NCBI GenBank assembly: GCA_964638585.1
Contig: CAZXAN010000001.1
Span: forward strand, 23,454 to 87,453
Length of the DNA: 64,000 bases
Reading direction: 5' to 3'
DNA from: an uncultured Candidatus Saccharibacteria bacterium
GTDB taxonomy: Bacteria; Patescibacteriota; Minisyncoccia; Phycocordibacterales; Phycocordibacteraceae
Part shown: in pieces, positions 7,843 to 60,682 of the stretch
Position numbering within the stretch: the first letter of the stretch is position 1
Layout of the letters: the number at the start of each line of letters is the position of its first letter
Translations under genes and position numbers: made by a program
Notes under the pieces: generated by a model
Seen by the model: only the letters and a program-made list of their open reading frames with translations
What the model was told of the DNA's origin: nothing
Database searches by the model: none

Positions 7843-8277
7843 TCAGTGAGGTTTGAACCGCCTCCATTCCCCGACCATGATGCGCTCGGGGATCACGCAC
7901 GACATGGTGTTGTAGCGCAGGTGGTAGAGGGCTCCTAGCCCTTGACCCGGGATTTTCCCGACATGCGGTACCATCACCGGTAAGATCGCTGGCAGGTCCC
8001 CCTTAAAGCAAGCGAATTTCACCTCCCTGAAGAACTGCTCCGCCTGGTCGTAGAGAGACCGATAAACAGGAACAGCACTTTCCTTCAGAGCGGCCAAGGT
8101 CTCGCTCAATTTGAGCAATATCTGATCGCGCCCTCGGTAGCGCGCCCAGTTGACGACACCTTGCCGATCCGGAAGGTTATACTCGTTGTTATTGGTACCC
8201 TGCATGGAACGTATGGGCCGAGTTGACGGTGTAATCGTCCTGCCGACCTTTGTTGCAACAGCACTTTGTTGATTCAT
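7843..8277 (-). CDS. Hypothetical protein (GC-rich)
   Basis: 144-aa ORF, no family recognised. GC appears elevated relative to neighbouring genes. Confidence 0.4.
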   Translation of the reverse strand: MNQQSAVATKVGRTITPSTRPIRSMQGTNNNEYNLPDRQGVVNWARYRGRDQILLKLSETLAALKESAVPVYRSLYDQAEQFFREVKFACFKGDLPAILPVMVPHVGKIPGQGLGALYHLRYNTMSCVIPERIMVGEWRRFKPH

Positions 8278-8396: not shown

Positions 8397-10118
8397 TCAC
8401 GGACTTGCCAGATAATCCATACGGATGTTGGCTATTGTCGCACGAAGCTTCTTGTCTCGCTCAACTATCCACTTCATCCGCTGGCAAGCATGGAGCACGG
8501 ACGTATGGTCTCTCTTGAATATCTTTGCTAGCTTGACCAAACTGAAGTTGAAGTCCAAGTTAAGCAAGTACATCACGAGGTGACGTGGCCACACGAATGA
8601 ACGGCGCCGAGACACACCGAGAACGTCATCCACACTTACACCGTACGCTTTAGCTACCGTCTGAAGTACTTTTTGTGAAGCGTCTTCTTTTTCTAATGTA
8701 ACGACAGAGCCGACATCTGCGACGATTGGATCCTCTTCCGGTGGCTCGACTACAACTGCGGGTTCGCGATCAAGCTGTATAGCTCGTAAAACCTTCTTCA
8801 CAGCTCGAGCCGCGACTTGACGAGCATACTCGCGCGTGAAGCCGAACTTGTTTCCGATGTCCTCGAGCGTGAACGACCTGTCGCCGTTAACTCCGGTTCT
8901 GAGACTGAGTACCTCCCGTTCTTGTTGTGTAAGTGTACGGAAGGCTCGCTCTACTTCATCGGCGTTAGCCCTTTCCATCAAGACATCTTCTTGGGTCGGA
9001 CTGGTATCGGCAATGAGATCGAGGAGAGGAGTGTCACTATCTCCAACCTCTTCGTCCAAGGAAACCATATTTTGGAAGCGAAGCGCCTCTTCGAGAAGAT
9101 TGGCCTCGCTGGGAGCGAGCTCCATTGCCGACGTAACCTCTCGGAACGTCGGTTCGCGACCTAGTGTGCTTGTGTACTCGCGTCGTGCCTTAAAGTACTT
9201 GCGCATAGTCTCACACAAGTGAACGGGAATGCGAACTATCCGATCGGTATCCATGATCGCTCGTGTGATGACCTGGCGGATCCACCACGTGGCATACGTA
9301 GAAAACTTGTAGCCGAGATGATAATCGAACTTCTCGACCGCTTTCAGTAGCCCGATGTTTCCCTCCTGAATTAGATCGAGAATGGTGAGACTTTCTGCAG
9401 TGCGAGTGTAGCGTCTCGCGATTGAAACCACGAGCCGCAAATTCGCCTTGATGAATCGCTCTTTGGCGACATTGTCTCCCTTTTCGATCTTTTGCATCAA
9501 TGCCACTTCCTCGTCCCTTGAAAGAATCCTGAACTGTCCGGCCTCCTGCAAGTATTTGTACAAGAGGTCATCGTGGTCCGCCCAGGGCAATTCGTACAAA
9601 GGTTTTGAGGTGACGAGTGGGTCTTCGATATCTTCAATTGCTTCTTCTACCGAGAGATCGACTTCTGCGAGAGTTGAAACATCTTCCGTTGCCGATTCTT
9701 CGACCTCGATTAAAGGCTCGTCGACTCGATTTGTCGGATAGAGTGGTGTGGCGCTAGGCCTCGAAACCACTTGTTTCTTCGGAAACTCCAGTACTTCCGC
9801 CTTGCCCGATACGCCGAGCTTGGCATTTTTCAGATATTCGCCCAGCTGAGTGACAAAGAATGAGAGAAGCTCTCGGTCTTTAATCACGCGAGCTGGCAGT
9901 AGTTCGGTAATTTCCGTAGGAGTTATATACCCGCGGCGTTTCGCGATTTCCAGGATGTGCGAATTCTTTGAGTTTAAGGTCCGTTTATTAAGTTCAGCCA
10001 GGAACGAAGGCACTACTTCTCCCATATTTACGACATTGGTCTTGTTCATTCTTACCCCTGTAAACGTTTGAGTGGTTAGTGGAAAGATCGGGTTTACAAT
10101 CTGATGCAAATCTCGCAT
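8397..10118 (-). CDS. rpoD: RNA polymerase sigma-70 factor (RpoD-like) with a C-terminal DnaA domain-IV-like DNA-binding domain
   Basis: Regions 1.2 through 4 are recognisable ([18 protein letters not shown].. and the 4.2 [30 protein letters not shown]). An extra roughly 100-aa tail, [34 protein letters not shown].., matches the DnaA C-terminal DnaA-box-binding domain almost motif for motif. The true start may be the internal Met at about 10049. Confidence 0.9.
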
Positions 10119-10228
10119 ATCTTACACAGCTTGTCAACGTATAGACAGACTGCCGTTTTAGTGTAAAGTTATTTTCGGAACGGTTTTTTTGACTTCAATC
10201 AAACGCTAGACAACAGGAGAACAAAATC

Positions 10229-12301
10229 GTGCTTACTCCCTTTGGGTACCAGCAGGAATGTCTTGCAGTTACGGAAGCAGCGCGTCGTGACCATGAAAAA
10301 AGAGCTCTCGTCGTAATGGCAAGCGGGCTTGGAAAGACTGTTACCGCCGCGTTTGACGCCAAGTCATGGCGCCAGAAGAACACGGGTCGGTATCTCTATC
10401 TCTGCCACCAGAACGATATTCTCTATCAGGCCAAGACAACCTTTGAGGGTATCGTTGATCAAGGACAGACCTATGGGTACTTCCATGGGCAAGAAAAAAG
10501 CGCCGGGGCTGATTTTCTTTTTGCGTCGCTTCAGACGATGGAGCGCCACAAAGAGTCTTTTGACCCTCGTGCGTTCGCGTATATTCTGGTTGACGAAAGT
10601 CACCATTCTAGTGCGCGGACGTATCGCACCACAATCGAGTATTTTAAGCCGGATTTTTTGTTGGGGGTGACCGCTACTCCCGATCGGCTTGATGAACTTA
10701 ACATCCGCGATATCTATGGTGAGGAGGTGTACTCCTTGCCACTCGACGAGGCTATGGCGAGAAAGTTGGTAACACCAGTGGATTATCGGCTCCTCACTGA
10801 CGAAATACAACTTTCTGGCTACATTGAAACCGGCGGGGGGCGAATGAGCATCAACAAGCTCAATCGGAAGATTTTCATCCCGCGTCGGGATGAGGAGATT
10901 GCGAAAATCATCGCTCGTCATGTCAGTGGTGTGAAAAGTCCTCGCGTTATTATCTTCTGCAATTCGGTTCAGCACTGCGACCACCTGGCCAAGTTTATTC
11001 CGAACTGTTTCGCCATCCACTCGCGCGTTCCGTTAAAAGAGCGCGCCGTACGGTTGGAGCTGTTTCGGCAAGGCTTGGTAGGCACGGTGCTCGCCGTTGA
11101 CGTCTTCAACGAGGGTATAGACATACCACAGGCGAATGTCATCGTTTTCCTGCGGTCAACTGACTCTCCGACAGTCTTTCTCCAGCAATTGGGGCGAGGT
11201 CTGCGGAAGAATGAGGAAAAAGAAAAAGTGATCGTCCTAGATTTTGTCGCTAACTGCGAACGGATCAAGATGGTGCACGACCTCTATCAGTCGGTTGAAC
11301 GAAAAAAACAGCAAGTGCAAAAACAGTCGCAGCAGTCGAGCGGGCTTGAACCGATGACACTCAACATCAAGACGGGTGAATTCAAGGAAAAAATAGTACC
11401 CATTCTTAATCTGTTGGAACGGGTTCATCCGAGCTTCTATCCGACGTGGAAAGAGGCTGCAGAGGCCGCCTGCGAGCTCGGTGTTGGTTCAAAGGACGAG
11501 TACGCGAAGCTGTACCTGAAAGACCCACGCCTCCCGTCTAGCCCGCGCTACACATACCGCACCGATTTCCCAGGCTGGGAAATCTTCCTCGGCAAGCGAA
11601 CGGCAGAACGATACGAAACGTGGCAAGAAGCGAGCAAGGCCGCCATAGCGCTTGGTATAAAAACGCCAGCTGAATATAAAGAGCGATATACCGAGGACAC
11701 TAAACTACCGGCTGACCCGCCGTCATACAAAGAGTGGCCACGGTGGCCAGTGTTTCTGGGAGGCGAATTGAGAGACCTCTATCCTGACTGGGAGCAAGTA
11801 GCGAAGGTGTGCAAACACCACAAAGTTCAGTCGGTGGCCGAGTACTGGGACCTGTGTGATAAGGACAAGCGATTGCCACGACGACCCCATGATGTCTACG
11901 AAGACTTCCCGGGATTTGCGAAAATGCTTGGTACTAAGCGCATCGTTGAGGACCCATATCCGACCTGGCAGGAAGCGAGTAGAGCTGCAAAAGAGCTTGG
12001 CATAAAAAGTTCTTTTGATTACACGAAGAAGTACAAAAAGAATACTCAGCTCTATGCAGCGCCCGCCGATCGGTACCCGGATTTCCCTGGATGGGCTACC
12101 TTCTTAGGTATTCCAGAACGAGAAGTTGTTCAGGATCCATACCCGACGTGGCAAGAAGCAGGAAGAGCCGCAAAGACTCTAGGGATCCAGAGCGGGACTG
12201 AGTATCACCAACGGCGTCGAGAAGATCCACGTCTGCCCGGAGTGGTTCATCGATATAAAGGGTTCCCGGGCTGGAACAAATTCCTGGGTAAATCTCGCTA
12301 A
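10229..12301 (+). CDS. SF2 DEAD/DEAH-box helicase (ResIII-like) with five C-terminal helicase-associated (HA) repeats
   Basis: Walker A MASGLGKT and motif II VDESHH are present, followed by a Helicase_C region (QQLGRGLR). The C-terminal 290 aa comprise five repeats of about 55 aa each, YPTWQEAxRAAKELGIxSxxEY..LPxxPxxY.xFPGWxxFLG. GTG start with AGGAGA Shine-Dalgarno. Confidence 0.8.
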   Translation: MLTPFGYQQECLAVTEAARRDHEKRALVVMASGLGKTVTAAFDAKSWRQKNTGRYLYLCHQNDILYQAKTTFEGIVDQGQTYGYFHGQEKSAGADFLFASLQTMERHKESFDPRAFAYILVDESHHSSARTYRTTIEYFKPDFLLGVTATPDRLDELNIRDIYGEEVYSLPLDEAMARKLVTPVDYRLLTDEIQLSGYIETGGGRMSINKLNRKIFIPRRDEEIAKIIARHVSGVKSPRVIIFCNSVQHCDHLAKFIPNCFAIHSRVPLKERAVRLELFRQGLVGTVLAVDVFNEGIDIPQANVIVFLRSTDSPTVFLQQLGRGLRKNEEKEKVIVLDFVANCERIKMVHDLYQSVERKKQQVQKQSQQSSGLEPMTLNIKTGEFKEKIVPILNLLERVHPSFYPTWKEAAEAACELGVGSKDEYAKLYLKDPRLPSSPRYTYRTDFPGWEIFLGKRTAERYETWQEASKAAIALGIKTPAEYKERYTEDTKLPADPPSYKEWPRWPVFLGGELRDLYPDWEQVAKVCKHHKVQSVAEYWDLCDKDKRLPRRPHDVYEDFPGFAKMLGTKRIVEDPYPTWQEASRAAKELGIKSSFDYTKKYKKNTQLYAAPADRYPDFPGWATFLGIPEREVVQDPYPTWQEAGRAAKTLGIQSGTEYHQRRREDPRLPGVVHRYKGFPGWNKFLGKSR

Positions 12302-12329
12302 CCAGTTGTCCTTTGTTCTCATTCACACG

Positions 12330-12362
12330 CCACAGATGATGAGTCTGTGGTGTTTTCTTTTT
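12330..12362 (+). terminator. Intrinsic terminator of the helicase gene
   Basis: Hairpin ccacaga-tgatgag-tctgtgg followed by tgttttctttttt. Confidence 0.6.
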
Positions 12363-12733: not shown

Positions 12734-13231
12734 CTAGACTGTCGGAAGGAAGTCCGGTGCATCTGGATCTGATGCCAGGAGTGTCGCGTAGTGAGTCGCT
12801 TCAGCGCACAGAGCAGCCGAATTCATTCGTGCGAACATCTCGTCAAAGTACGGCTGAACTCCGCTGACAGCGCTGATGACGCCGTCGACGATAGCGCTAC
12901 CCCAGTACAGCGGATCTCCTGGAAGAAGCATGTGTGGTTTGGTCATGATAACGTCGCGTGACGAGAGTCCCGTTCGCCACGAAATCATGGCTTTGCCGTA
13001 CGCATACTTGCGGTACGGCCACTTCCATTCCGCTTCGACGCCGAATGAGTACTCGAATAGAATCGGGAGGGGCCGTCCGTTTTCATATCGAATGTTTGGG
13101 TCGAGAGCGACTATATGCAAGTCTCCACCTTTGACGTGATTACCGCTGATTGCATTCCTGATGCCAGGGAGTACGAACGCCTCAAAAGCATTATATGCTT
13201 TCGTTTTGTCGAGAAACGGTATTGGATTCAC
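12734..13231 (-). CDS. Hypothetical protein, possibly GlcG/HbpS-like (DUF336)
   Basis: 165 aa and GC-rich. There is a weak resemblance to DUF336 heme-binding proteins (GSAIVDGVISAVSGVQ). Confidence 0.3.
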   Translation of the reverse strand: MNPIPFLDKTKAYNAFEAFVLPGIRNAISGNHVKGGDLHIVALDPNIRYENGRPLPILFEYSFGVEAEWKWPYRKYAYGKAMISWRTGLSSRDVIMTKPHMLLPGDPLYWGSAIVDGVISAVSGVQPYFDEMFARMNSAALCAEATHYATLLASDPDAPDFLPTV

Positions 13232-13457: not shown

Positions 13458-13853
13458 CTATTGCCTCAACGTTGCGAAGTAGTCACGCCAGGTGGTTCCT
13501 TTCGTATGGTCACGCGGCACGAATTTTTCGATCAGCATGACCTCGATGTCGATATTAAGCGGAGAGAGTCGCTCCACAATTTTCTCGAGCTCATCAGCCG
13601 ACGCCTTTGACCCAATCACACGAAGAAAGGGTTGACCTCCGCCATCAGTGTCGACTACCGTGTCGTCGTACAGCGTAAGAACGACGTCCTTCTCGTACGA
13701 GGCCCCCTTAAGCAGTCTCTTCGTCGCCAGATATACCGCGCTACAGTCCGATGCTTCGGGAAAGCCGTGGAACTCAATGTTCGGCATTACATTCTCCTTA
13801 AGGATGGTGGATGCAAACCAGTTTCCCGGTTCGCACGTTTGCACTAACGCCAA
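13458..13853 (-). CDS. Hypothetical protein translationally coupled to the upstream XRE regulator
   Basis: A TTG start lies 1 nt after the XRE stop, and an internal Met (MPNIEFHGF..) is an alternative start. No family recognised. Confidence 0.35.
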   Translation of the reverse strand: MALVQTCEPGNWFASTILKENVMPNIEFHGFPEASDCSAVYLATKRLLKGASYEKDVVLTLYDDTVVDTDGGGQPFLRVIGSKASADELEKIVERLSPLNIDIEVMLIEKFVPRDHTKGTTWRDYFATLRQ

Positions 13854-58234: not shown

Positions 58235-60682
58235 TTATTTCAAATACTCGGAGGCTTCGGCAGGAGTGAGAGAGTCTGGAGAGACAGAGTCGGGGAGGTA
58301 GATGCGGCGGAGGCCCTTTTTTAGGAATACACCCTGCTTAGATTTATAGAGTACAAGTGATTTGCCGGTGCGCGGATGTTTACCGATTTCTTTTACTATT
58401 TCTACACCCTTTGGAGGTTTCTTTGGTTCGGCGAGGAGGGTGAGAGCCTGATCAAGCGTGATAGTGTATGGGTCGCCGATCTTGGCCTTGAGCGAGCGGA
58501 ACTCGCCATCGCTGCCGACATAGGGGCCGAATCGGCCGGTGTTTGAAAACACTGCCTTGCCAGTTGATGGATGATTGCCGAGCTCGCGCGGGAGAGATAG
58601 GTAACGCACAGCATCTGCGAGAGTTACCTGCGACAGGTCAGTGCCTTTAGGAATACTTGCTCTCTTGGCGGCAACTCGTGGTCGTCCTCGACCACGTTTG
58701 CCGCCACCCCGCGAAGCTTTAGCGGAGTGGGGTTTTTCGTCACGCGCCCCCTTCGCTGAAGCTTCGGAGGGCCGCAGCATCTCTACATATGGCCCGAATC
58801 TCCCTGTTTTTATGTAGATTGCTTCGCCAGTGTCGGGGTGATTACCAATCGGCTCGTCCTGCTTTAGCTCGTGACCGTCTTCTGTCCGCGCGCCCATACA
58901 ATCCGGATACTTTTTACAACTCATAAAGACACCGCCACGGCCGAGCTTGTTCTCCATCGGGCTCCCGCAGAGCGGGCAGGGGAACTCAGCTCCAGAGTCG
59001 CCGAGCGATGTTGCCTTCGGGAGTTTATCTTTCGCTCGTACTGCCTTTTCAAACGGTCCATAAAATTCCGTGAGCGTTTCTGTATATCCGCGCTCGCCAC
59101 GCGCTATTTCGTCCAACTCGTCCTCCATTTCTGCAGTGAAGGTGTCGCTCACATAGGTGGCGAAATTTTCTTCAAGCCATCCAGATACGACCATACCGGT
59201 GGCAGTGGGCTGGAGCGCTCTCGCCACCTTCTCCACATATCCGCGATCTTGAATCGTCTTCATGATAGAAGCATAGGTTGATGGTCTGCCAATCCCTCTC
59301 TTTTCTAGTTCTTTAATTAATCCAGCTTCGGTGTATCTATTCGGTGGCTCGGTCTGCTTCTCTTCTGCGCCAAGAGAGATAAGAGATAGTGGATCGCCGA
59401 CAGCAAGCTTCGGCAGTTCAACATCTTCGCCTCGCGCTTTTGTGTCCAGCGCGAGCCAGCCGGGGAATAGTAGTCGCGAGCCGTTCGCGGTAAAGATGAC
59501 TCCTTGCTGCAAGGTGTCACCCTTACACACGACACCCGTGCGCATAATTCGCGCAGCCTTCATCTGCGAGGCGAGTGCGCGCGTGCGGATTAGCTCGTAG
59601 AGTTGTGTCTCATCAGGCGTGTTACCAGCGCGCGCGAGCGATGGGTTTGTCGGGCGGACAGCCTCGTGCGCCTCCTGCGCATTCTTACTCGTTGTCTTAT
59701 ACACGCGCACTTGTACATAGTCTTTACCAAAATCTTTTTCAACCACGTTCGCTATTTTCGCGACCGCCTCTGCGCCGAGATTTACCGAATCGGTGCGCAT
59801 GTAGGTGATATGGCCAGCTTCGTAGAGCTTCTGCGCGGCGCTCATTGTCCTTGAAGGCGCGAAGCCGAGTCGTGTAGAGGCAGTTTGCTGGAGTGTAGAC
59901 GTAGTGAAGGGCGGTCGCGGATTTCTGTCCTCTTCTTTCTCTACGACGTCTGCCACACTCCAGTTAGCACTTTTGCCTGCATTTACTATTCTATCTGCCT
60001 CTTCCTTCGTCGCCGGCTGTTCAACGCAGGTCGTGGCTAGCTCGCCAGTTTTTGATTTGAAAAGTGCCGAGAGTATGAAATAGGTGACAGGATCGAAAGC
60101 CTTAATCTCGCGTTCGCGCTCCGCGAGTATCCGGAGCGCGGGGGACTGCACTCTGCCAGCAGACAGCCCGTAACGGACCTTTTTCCAGATTAGCCCAGAC
60201 AAGTCATAGCCCACTATACGGTCCAGTACACGCCGCGCTTCTTGCGCGCGGCGCAGATTCTCATCTATATCGCGCGGATGCGCAATCGCATCTTTAATAG
60301 CATCCTCGGTAATTTCATGATACACAACGCGTTTTATAGGTTTGTTTTTTGACTTTTGAGATTTGGTACTTCCGAGCTCTTCCTGTATTAGCTCGGCGAT
60401 ATGCCACGCTATCGCCTCGCCCTCGCGGTCGGGGTCGGTCGCCAGATATATCTCGTCTGCTTTTTCTGCTGCTCGCTGTATCTTCTCTATTACCTCCAAC
60501 TTCCCAGGTGACACGACATAGCGCGGGATAAACCCGCCTTCAATATCCACAGCGTCTTTATTACTCTTCGGCAAGTCGCGGACGTGACCAACCGAGGCAA
60601 TGACCTCATAGTCTTTACCTAAATATTTCCCTATAGTCCTCGCCTTCGTCGGCGATTCTACTATTAATAATCTCTTACTCAT
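58235..60682 (-). CDS. topA: DNA topoisomerase I
   Basis: [22 protein letters not shown] (TOPRIM), a catalytic Tyr domain, and C-terminal zinc-ribbon-like repeats (CPLCGSPM.., GRFGPYV). Confidence 0.95.

Follow-up and report, generated by a model that had tools for sequence, protein, structure and literature searches.

The 64-kb stretch of DNA analysed here (the window) is core chromosome of the Patescibacteria type, with a housekeeping content, including lepA, rnc, gyrA, topA, ftsZ/A and aaRS genes. It contains a complete gene for a putative helicase and, next to it, a gene for a sigma-70 factor fused to a DnaA domain-IV HTH (Table 1); the two are divergent, as the initial annotation had described. 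The intergenic region between the two genes is 110 bp and includes the promoter-like site. The N-terminus of the helicase, MLTPFGYQQECL, fits the orthologue consensus M..P..YQ.ECL, and an identical protein (P0001) is carried by 7 public contigs. A terminator-like hairpin with a T-run begins 26 nt past the stop codon and suggests that the gene is a monocistronic unit.

Table 1. Features of the helicase gene and its divergent neighbour, in positions of the window.
Feature	Position	Strand	Details
Sigma-70 (regions 1.2, 2, 3, 4) + DnaA domain-IV HTH fusion	8397..10118	-	Pfam
Sigma-70-type promoter-like site TAGACA-16-TAAAGT	10142..10169	+	Consensus scan, pattern match only
Shine-Dalgarno-like AGGAG	10217..10221	+	7 nt 5' of the GTG start, read from the sequence
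Helicase ORF	10229..12301	+	Complete, 690 aa, GTG start
ResIII / RecA-like domain 1	10235..10687	+	Pfam PF04851, aa 3-153, 2e-32
Helicase_C / RecA-like domain 2	10925..11209	+	Pfam PF00271, aa 233-327, 6e-17
Helical linker, motor to array	11255..11425	+	AF2 model; helices aa 343-366 and 383-399
INT_rpt unit 1	11435..11602	+	hmmsearch 1.6e-25; Pfam PF14882
INT_rpt unit 2	11609..11767	+	hmmsearch 1.4e-24
INT_rpt unit 3	11777..11941	+	hmmsearch 3.9e-19; most divergent, without the LGI motif
INT_rpt unit 4	11954..12118	+	hmmsearch 5.1e-25; model pLDDT >90
INT_rpt unit 5	12137..12298	+	hmmsearch 5.5e-24; most basic (net charge +6), reaches the C-terminus
Intrinsic-terminator-like hairpin + T-run	12327..12353	+	11 pairs; consensus scan, pattern match only

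The first RecA-like domain carries motif I as ASGLGKT (aa 31-37), motif II as DESHH (aa 122-126) and motif III as TATP (aa 148-151), and the second carries motif VI as QQLGRGLR (aa 319-326). With motifs I, II, III and VI spread over a pair of RecA-like domains, the protein is an SF2 helicase or translocase, and the previous assignment to the ResIII/DExH type holds. Among 102 homologues, GLGKT, DESHH, TATP and QQLGRGLR are almost invariant. The ATPase motifs are intact, and the protein, a stand-alone SF2 enzyme, is probably active as an ATPase.

The nearest solved motor core is that of SauUSI (7clg), matched at 1.1e-53 by aa 5-346 of the query over SauUSI residues 224-564, and the next solved relatives are RadD (4e-20) and a type I R subunit (4.5e-17). 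NCBIfam models for RadD and EcoAI R were matched at ~1e-30; the score to the RadD equivalog (NCBIfam NF053632) is 106 bits, below its cut-off of 720 bits. The helicase part of the PADLOC model mREase_IV was matched at 2.4e-54, over model positions 226-563 of 953, i.e. the central third of the model only, and the ORF begins at the motor. The likeness to SauUSI, a type IV modification-dependent restriction enzyme, thus lies in the helicase core. SauUSI has an N-terminal PLD nuclease and a C-terminal DUF3427 target-recognition domain, whereas no PLD nuclease, DUF3427 or integrase domain was found by Pfam in the helicase protein, and the C-terminal slot that DUF3427 occupies in SauUSI is filled here by a repeat array. 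The motor would be of the SauUSI/RadD/HsdR dsDNA translocase type, and translocase behaviour may be expected from this relationship.

The array (aa 402-690) consists of five tandem ~57-aa repeats at the C-terminus, with units starting at aa 404, 462, 518, 577 and 638. Mapping of the units agrees with the five ~55-aa repeats in the C-terminal ~290 aa that had been noted earlier; the span given for them, 11420-12301, corresponds to the array plus the stop codon, and the consensus string proposed then equals the computed consensus. Each unit includes the pattern Y-x-[TD]-W...[FW]-P-[GR]-[WF]..[FM]-L-G, and pairwise identity among the five is 39-50%, with 8 invariant columns. Unit boundaries were taken from a repeat HMM made from homologues (domain E-values 4e-19 to 2e-25), which revealed no sixth unit elsewhere when the window was searched in all six frames. 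No tandem repeat was detected at the DNA level by Tandem Repeats Finder, the units having diverged so far that they are similar at the protein level alone. The median pI across homologues is 9.35 for the array versus 7.16 for the core, and basic residues are conserved ahead of the LP motif (86%) and within the linkers. Several of the best-conserved polar positions in homologues are acidic (E8 80%, D60 96% and D81 74%), and the units of the window protein are individually near neutral, unit 5 excepted.

In a hmmscan of the array, Pfam family PF14882 (INT_rpt) was matched at 1.3e-28. The array alone scores 99.4 bits and the full protein 94.0 bits, in 4-6 matched stretches, relative to a curated gathering threshold of 26.5 bits, and the family was also matched by 51/51 di-repeats from homologues. 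INT_rpt was formerly called PHINT_rpt and has the Pfam name 'integrase repeat unit'. Using tblastn, the array was found to be 32-36% identical to VPA1269-family proteins over 97-99% of its length.

A full-length AF2 model (pLDDT 87, pTM 0.60) includes a helical linker between the motor and the array. An AF2 di-repeat model (pLDDT 93.3, pTM 0.60) shows a pair of helices of 10 residues and two short turns per unit, and model confidence falls in the linker between units. The array is thus predicted to be a beads-on-a-string arrangement of independently folded helical modules connected by short flexible linkers. Fold searches of the PDB with the repeat model gave no convincing match.

The initial annotation had instead regarded the repeats as HA-like (PF03457). 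Indeed, in HA helicases, which come from actinobacterial, Pseudomonas and Bacillota plasmids, the SF2 motor is extended by a tandem array of 4-8 helical ~65-aa units, HA and INT_rpt units are alike in length and helical content, and a W-x-E helix opens both. The analogy therefore stands for the architecture, with C-terminal arrays in SF2 helicases, but not for the units, between which no likeness was detected by sequence, profile or fold. PF03457 did not match the array in hmmscan even at E<=10, whereas a positive control searched against the same library, P0133, scores 63.6 bits to HA, and HA is absent among the matches listed (25 of 51 families) for the 51 homologous di-repeats. When 502 INT_rpt units or 402 di-repeats were compared by hhalign with 33 genuine HA units, collected by tblastn against plasmids, the probability was 0.1-0.3% (E 0.18-0.54), versus 99.5% for one half of the HA set against the other and 99.6% (E 7.8e-25) for Patescibacteria INT_rpt against GmtZ INT_rpt. 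Likewise, the repeat model (pLDDT 93) failed to retrieve the solved HA structure 2KTA, and the motors of HA helicases and the motor here are generically related only (E 1e-14 to 3e-5). In one helicase, P0263, a single HA domain is directly followed by five INT_rpt units, and in both P0133 and P0263 HA and INT_rpt were detected side by side as distinct families. Hence, it is close to certain that the protein is an SF2 motor with five INT_rpt units, not HA units, and extremely improbable that the repeats are divergent HA domains. The title of Mills et al. 2013 (reference in PMC12191111) states that HA itself binds DNA.

INT_rpt occurs in ~3,900 representative proteins. GmtZ/VPA1269 integrases carry eight N-terminal units, of the same family, in the same tandem multi-copy organisation and with ~57 aa per unit. 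In GmtZ, however, the array is N-terminal on Integrase_2/Phage_integrase, whereas it is C-terminal on an SF2 helicase here. GmtZ belongs to the mobile Gamma-Mobile-Trio (GMT) islands, the mobility of which requires GmtZ (bioRxiv 10.1101/2023.03.28.534373), whereas the helicase gene has no mobile-element context; its product has no integrase domain, and its neighbours are the sigma-70 gene and small ORFs, not gmtY/gmtX. A phage helicase (L175) and another type of helicase, the third (P0226), also bear INT_rpt, and the family further occurs as fusions with ankyrin repeats and as array-only proteins. In viral data it is scarce, being found at one locus in IMG/VR and in one of 50,697 phage records.

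The helicase-INT_rpt architecture is common in Patescibacteria, and conservation of the repeat number, a check proposed in the initial annotation, was assessed in orthologues: the repeats are retained and their number varies from 3 to 8. That annotation had held that an absent HA score and orthologues lacking the repeats would speak against it; the first was observed, the second was not. A conserved junction, F.E.I.P.L.L.ER, is the start point of alternative arrays in relatives. At this junction, sister Patescibacteria motors, 62-67% identical, carry arrays of 4-8 DUF4379 (PF14311) zinc-ribbon units or 3-4 HNH_repeat (PF18780) units, and one relative has 2 zinc ribbons and 3 INT_rpt units in a single tail. 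Motor and junction are in common, as is the divergent sigma neighbour in the zinc-ribbon variant P0114, whereas the arrays differ in chemistry, consisting of a treble-clef zinc finger or a homing-endonuclease-associated repeat, both unrelated to INT_rpt. A homology between INT_rpt and HNH_repeat, considered from LG-x-[ST]...FxGW shared by eye, was rejected (hhalign 1.5%, with only 7 HNH_repeat units). In the core tree, motors with DUF4379 or HNH_repeat arrays are nested among INT_rpt bearers. Clearly, modules have been swapped, with the motor constant and the small-repeat array differing. In distant orthologues the positional identity of the units is lost (46.7% against 44.0% identity).

An analogy, though nothing closer, is provided by bacterial topoisomerase I, the C-terminal domains of which are zinc ribbons in E. 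coli and Toprim_C_rpt units in mycobacteria; the topA of the window carries the two together. This is likewise a DNA enzyme with a C-terminal small-repeat array, in which the module type is swapped by lineage and the position kept, whereas the enzyme class and the folds differ.

Orthologues of the helicase gene adjoin recA, ftsK, ruvA, mutM and recQ. The head-to-head sigma-70 gene is kept at the P0009, P0027, P0054, P0019 and P0114 loci while other neighbours change, and was found in 6 of the 9 lineages looked up. A wider sample was obtained by scanning metagenome contigs with a junction-specific alignment, a full-length alignment being unsuitable for this synteny scan since generic helicase motifs drew unrelated phyla. 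In this sample, 13 of 57 evaluable loci had the sigma neighbour, one of the 13 being a 489-aa gene without a sigma signature. The sigma-70 factor was thus ruled out as a universal partner, and the pairing is conserved in a subclade only. Clustering of recurrent neighbours at 88 loci returned sigma (15/88), RNase III (6/88) and shadow ORFs, and nothing else that was recurrent; the orthologue loci examined share neither a nuclease nor any other partner of a defence type. The RNase III gene lies two genes from the helicase in the window and immediately downstream of it at another locus (L089), and at a further locus (L090) the genes downstream include those for a serine recombinase and a terminase.

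We consider it somewhat better than even (a probability of about 0.55) that the motor is tethered by its array, acting as a modular DNA-binding tail with multivalent contacts, and the tethering role suggested in the initial annotation was a reasonable guess. The five INT_rpt modules would replace the C-terminal target-recognition domain of SauUSI-type enzymes and would bind nucleic acid multivalently, the most likely ligand being DNA, not RNA or protein. The array would thereby keep the motor on its substrate, or place it there, while the enzyme works on chromosomal DNA, for example in repair, in recombination or in the remodelling of forks or R-loops. Both the number of units (3-8) and the module type (INT_rpt, DUF4379 or HNH_repeat) would be free to vary because avidity, and no single unit, gives the function. 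In favour of a DNA tether, the motor is nearest to SauUSI, RadD and a type I R subunit, the enzymes that carry INT_rpt act on DNA (GmtZ, the phage helicase, P0226 and P0263), the genomic setting is chromosomal and of housekeeping type, the arrays are basic, and the same slot takes DUF4379 or HNH_repeat arrays. In PMC12350094, DUF4379/CapR-like arrays are regarded as probable accessory modules through which homing endonucleases bind DNA. Against a DNA tether, the conserved acidic positions are not usual where a surface contacts DNA and would suit a protein-binding or purely structural role, units other than unit 5 are near neutral, and ankyrin fusions and array-only proteins occur.

The ankyrin fusion and the array-only proteins, together with the conservation of aromatic as well as acidic residues in the units, would fit a protein-protein scaffold that brings the motor to, for example, RNA polymerase, the sigma-DnaA_C factor, SSB or a recombinase, with no binding of nucleic acid, as would the head-to-head sigma-70 gene that persists in the window and five other loci. 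A scaffold is nevertheless unlikely: the sigma neighbour is restricted to a subclade, a specific protein interface would hardly tolerate 3-8 copies or the loss of positional identity in distant orthologues, and the array is replaceable by unrelated zinc-ribbon or HNH_repeat arrays.

RNA is a possible ligand given the weak similarity to DbpA and the RNase III genes near some loci, and the protein would then be an RNA helicase or chaperone with a basic repeat tail that binds structured RNA, comparable to what DbpA, CsdA and RhlE do with their C-terminal extensions. The NCBIfam matches to DbpA (5e-10), SrmB, RhlB and CshA extend to 7e-4, and in the PDB eIF4A and DDX proteins are among the matches to domain 2. 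However, the DNA translocases are far stronger matches over the full core, motif II is DESHH in a ResIII-type domain 1, not DEAD, and all other identified enzymatic partners of INT_rpt are DNA enzymes, which makes this reading quite unlikely.

Membership in a defence system was rejected because the protein has neither nuclease nor reader domains and lacks conserved partners. It is also very improbable that it is a defence helicase in degenerate form or dependent on a partner, i.e. a type IV restriction-like sensor that no longer has a nuclease, or an accessory of a mobile-element integrase: mREase_IV is the best PADLOC model, the repeats were named from integrases, GmtZ is needed for the mobility of its islands and one locus has a serine recombinase and a terminase, but the helicase lies in core chromosome, has no PLD nuclease, DUF3427 or integrase domain, its sole conserved neighbour is the sigma factor of one subclade, and its repeats are scarce in viral data.

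The helicase is a further member of a common, catalogued but uncharacterised family and as such of modest interest, and the practical value of the analysis is mainly corrective in that the repeats are PF14882, not HA. The label 'integrase repeat' is misleading. At least one orthologue (P0032) is annotated as 'Phage integrase family protein', and PF14882 was taken as an integrase marker in a virome study (PMC11502894), so that chromosomal Patescibacteria helicases would be mislabelled as prophage or integrase. Binding data for one array would bear on all the representative INT_rpt proteins, since no relative of the repeat fold has been solved.

A wider reading, which we regard as quite unlikely, extends the DNA tether to a lineage-wide housekeeping DNA translocase with an interchangeable 'plug-in' slot for DNA-targeting arrays, functionally coupled in one subclade via a conserved bidirectional promoter to an unusual sigma-70 factor that carries or neighbours a DnaA domain-IV HTH. 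If this were true, INT_rpt would count as a DNA-binding fold that had so far gone unnoticed and is without solved relatives, and transcription or replication-origin recognition would be linked to DNA remodelling.

The C-terminal residues 402-690 of the helicase consist of five tandem units of 54-61 aa each, which confirms the initial annotation, with pairwise identities of 39-50% and matches of each unit to the family HMM at 4e-19 to 2e-25. The computed consensus, F-Y-x-T-W-Q-E-A-S-x-A-A-x-x-L-G-I-K-S-x-x-E-Y-x-x-x-Y-K-x-D-P-R-L-P-x-x-P-x-x-x-Y-x-D-F-P-G-W-x-x-F-L-G, essentially reproduced that proposed earlier. The family HMM found no further units elsewhere in the 64-kb window, and no DNA-level repeat was detected. 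The array matched PF14882 (INT_rpt) at 1.3e-28 (99 bits, cutoff 26.5), a family described in Pfam as an 'integrase repeat unit' and formerly named PHINT_rpt; the same family was matched by 51 of 51 di-repeats sampled from homologues (best 1.3e-29).

The repeats had been likened to the helicase-associated (HA) domain, PF03457, and this identity is now very improbable. A Pfam profile scan of the array gave no match to PF03457 even at E<=10, and HA was absent among the families listed for the 51 homologue di-repeats. When 502 INT_rpt units, or 402 di-repeats so that any register was allowed, were compared by hhalign with 33 genuine HA units from five plasmid helicases and one metagenomic protein, the probability was 0.1-0.3% (E-value 0.26-0.54), as compared with 99.5% (6.6e-23) between two halves of the HA set and 99.6% (7.8e-25) between INT_rpt units of Patescibacteria and of GmtZ, the integrase of GMT (Gamma-Mobile-Trio) mobile islands. 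INT_rpt is therefore not the HA domain at the sensitivity used. The two unrelated families can join in one tail: the SF2 helicase P0133/P0263 from a JGI metagenome, which has a different motor, carries a single true HA domain (2e-17 in P0263) and, immediately after it, five INT_rpt units.

The helicase gene is preceded by a promoter-like site and a ribosome-binding site and followed by a terminator-like hairpin (see table), which suggests that it is monocistronic. Motifs I (GLGKT), II (DESHH), III (TATP) and VI (QQLGRGLR) are near-invariant in 102 homologues, and the ATPase is thus probably functional. Among solved structures, the motor is closest to the helicase part of SauUSI, a type IV restriction enzyme (7clg, 1.1e-53), followed by RadD (4e-20) and then a type I R subunit, and motor matches in PADLOC and NCBIfam agree with this relationship, though no family cutoff of either resource was reached (RadD, 106 bits versus a cutoff of 720). 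As judged by sequence, the motor is intact and belongs to the dsDNA-translocase branch of SF2. Neither the PLD nuclease nor the DUF3427 reader domain of SauUSI was found in the protein by Pfam.

Features of the helicase locus and of other genes in the window
Feature	Position	Strand	Details
Helicase ORF	10229..12301	+	690 aa, GTG start
Ribosome-binding site AGGAG	7 nt 5' of helicase GTG start	+	
Promoter-like site	in 110-bp divergent intergenic region 5' of helicase		
Terminator-like hairpin	26 nt past helicase stop codon		
ResIII	aa 3-153 of helicase		Pfam 2e-32
Helicase_C	aa 233-327 of helicase		Pfam 6e-17
Sigma-70 gene	8397..10118	-	regions 1.2, 2, 3, 4 and C-terminal DnaA domain-IV HTH
Bac_DnaA_C	aa 481-546 of sigma-70		5.9e-18
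Small ORF	7843..8277	-	no Pfam match
Small ORF	12734..13231	-	no Pfam match
Small ORF	13458..13853	-	no Pfam match
Topoisomerase I	58235..60682	-	C-terminal Zn_ribbon_Top1 finger and two Toprim_C_rpt units

The full-length AF2 model (102 homologues) had a mean pLDDT of 87.3 and a pTM of 0.60, and that of units 4-5, built from 51 di-repeats, had values of 93.3 and 0.60. Each modelled unit includes two 10-residue helices (TWQEAxxAAxxL and SxxEYxxxYK), a conserved D-P-R-L-P-x-x-P loop, and a pair of short helical turns at Y-x-D-F-P-G-W-x-x-F-L. Its core is most simply taken to be formed by the invariant aromatic and aliphatic residues (Y, W, Y, L, Y, F, W, F, L). Confidence falls in the inter-unit linker. 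High local and moderate global confidence in the models indicates that the units fold independently, as beads on a flexible string, and do not form a rigid solenoid. No solved structural relative of INT_rpt was found. In the viral structure database BFVD, the best matches to the di-repeat were giant-virus SF2 helicases of Bodo saltans virus (E 3.6e-3, probability 1.0), Klosneuvirus and Catovirus, hinting that Nucleocytoviricota helicases may have similar tails. These entries (A0A2H4UVX6, A0A1V0SLK7 and A0A1V0S9X9) gave E-values of 3.6e-3 to 0.8 and TM-scores of 0.40-0.46.

An identical protein is encoded on seven public contigs, and over 100 of the 120 best relatives in the databases have the same helicase-INT_rpt architecture; their source names point to Patescibacteria (Paceibacterota, Parcubacteria, Taylorbacteria, Sungbacteria and Saccharibacteria). 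In every INT_rpt-bearing relative among these, the array starts at about aa 402 and ends at the C-terminus, with three units in 11 proteins, four in 27, five in 35, six in 17, seven in 8 and eight in 4. Repeat n of the window protein best resembles repeat n of other five-unit proteins in 12-18 of 34 cases. Among the 26 lower-ranked five-repeat homologues, a set that leaves out the nine closest with a core identity of at least 61%, identity between units at the same position is 46.7%, hardly higher than the 44.0% between units at different positions. The units are therefore old duplicates with turnover, not five specialised readers.

Eighteen of the 120 relatives lack INT_rpt, yet their motors are 62-67% identical to that of the window helicase, while most INT_rpt bearers are equally or more distant (36-66%). 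The alternative arrays start at the junction F-x-E-x-I-x-P-L-L-x-L-x-E-R and consist of 4-8 DUF4379 treble-clef zinc ribbons (PF14311, 1.4e-72 in P0114) or 3-4 HNH_repeat units (PF18780, 5.2e-48 in P0095), and the INT_rpt bearer P0105 has a mixed tail of two zinc ribbons and three INT_rpt units. When the cores were placed in a neighbour-joining tree, both variants nested among INT_rpt bearers, and P0114, with its zinc ribbons, lies at the same syntenic place, divergent from a sigma-70 gene. Given the shared motor, junction, nesting and synteny, the tail is an exchangeable cassette on a conserved motor. Topoisomerase I has likewise exchanged zinc ribbons for Toprim_C_rpt units between lineages, and the window topA encodes a further DNA enzyme of this genome whose tail mixes small repeats.

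The genes of the window, among them lepA, rnc, gyrA, topA, ftsZ, ftsA, aaRS genes and seven tRNAs, mark it as core chromosome. The sigma gene noted in the initial annotation indeed lies head-to-head with the helicase. A divergent sigma-70 gene recurs at the loci of P0009, P0027, P0054, P0019 and P0114, where all other neighbours differ, but in a wider sample was counted in only 13 of 57 evaluable loci, mainly among nearest relatives. One of these 13 is a divergent 489-aa gene for which no Pfam match is recorded and tblastn detected no resemblance to the sigma core, which leaves 12 of 57 loci supported. An RNase III gene was seen repeatedly, in 6 of 88 loci. The window sigma-70 is fused to DnaA_C, a fusion for which we know of no description; at the P0009 locus DnaA_C is a separate 166-aa gene adjoining the sigma gene, and at locus L090 the fusion is faint. 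The genomes with the P0019 and P0114 loci contain a second sigma-70, and that of the P0114 genome, which has region 1.1 and adjoins dnaG, is likely the housekeeping RpoD. The window sigma core is 45% similar to the latter versus 28-34% to the helicase-adjacent sigma. The sigma-helicase pair is flanked by small ORFs, which are also conserved on the identical contigs.

When 1.84 billion representative proteins were searched with a profile, 3,872 matched INT_rpt at E<=1e-3, of which 620 reached E<=1e-30. Of 142 new top matches, 30 are GmtZ-like integrases and 31 are helicases, with no fewer than three types of motor. The other 81 fit none of three reference cores and are mostly array-only proteins or fragments, some with N- or C-terminal regions without a Pfam match; they include an ankyrin fusion and P0226, a third helicase type. 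P0193, P0188 and P0216 have a conserved N-terminal domain of ~270 aa without a Pfam match, followed by 5-7 units, a fourth, unannotated host architecture. In 'VPA1269 family' proteins of gamma-proteobacterial plasmids, an N-terminal array of eight units precedes Integrase_2 and Phage_integrase, and the genes lie between gmtY and gmtX. GmtZ is needed for excision and insertion of GMT islands, the role of its repeats not being addressed (bioRxiv 10.1101/2023.03.28.534373). A different helicase on one IMG/VR phage contig carries five C-terminal units, and viral INT_rpt is otherwise rare (one match in 50,697 phage records).

On the most likely reading, the array would be a multivalent tether or positioning device that holds the motor on nucleic acid, probably DNA (probability about 0.55), replacing the target-recognition domain of SauUSI and acting by avidity, with no single unit decisive. 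This is consistent with small, independently folded C-terminal modules of variable copy number, replaceable by zinc-ribbon or homing-endonuclease-associated repeats, and with the basic character of the arrays (median pI 9.35 versus 7.16 for cores), in which K/R is conserved before L-P and in linkers. By analogy, the topoisomerase I tail exchange, with both repeat types in the window enzyme, may point the same way, as may DUF4379/CapR-like arrays, which are considered likely auxiliary DNA-binding modules in homing endonucleases (PMC12350094), and HA, reported as DNA-binding in the title of Mills et al. 2013 (cited in PMC12191111). However, the DNA-tether reading is weakened by acidic residues at several of the conserved polar positions, by the existence of ankyrin fusions and of proteins that consist of an array only, and by structural searches that gave no informative fold match for INT_rpt. 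A protein scaffold is a doubtful alternative, and binding of RNA is less likely still. No conserved nuclease or other partner gene was found near the helicase in the loci compared, and a defence or mobile-element role is improbable.

PF14882 is already a catalogued family, and its combination with a helicase is available precomputed from public resources, with NCBI naming such proteins 'integrase repeat-containing protein'; a literature search by repeat-family accessions and names found no functional study of INT_rpt. The window helicase belongs to a known, uncharacterised kind. In NCBI, the orthologous helicase P0032 bears the name 'Phage integrase family protein', and a virome study took PF14882 as an integrase marker (PMC11502894). 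The analysis corrects the family assignment to INT_rpt, documents cassette-like exchange of tail arrays, and warns that the 'integrase' label of Pfam spreads misleading annotation to chromosomal helicases.
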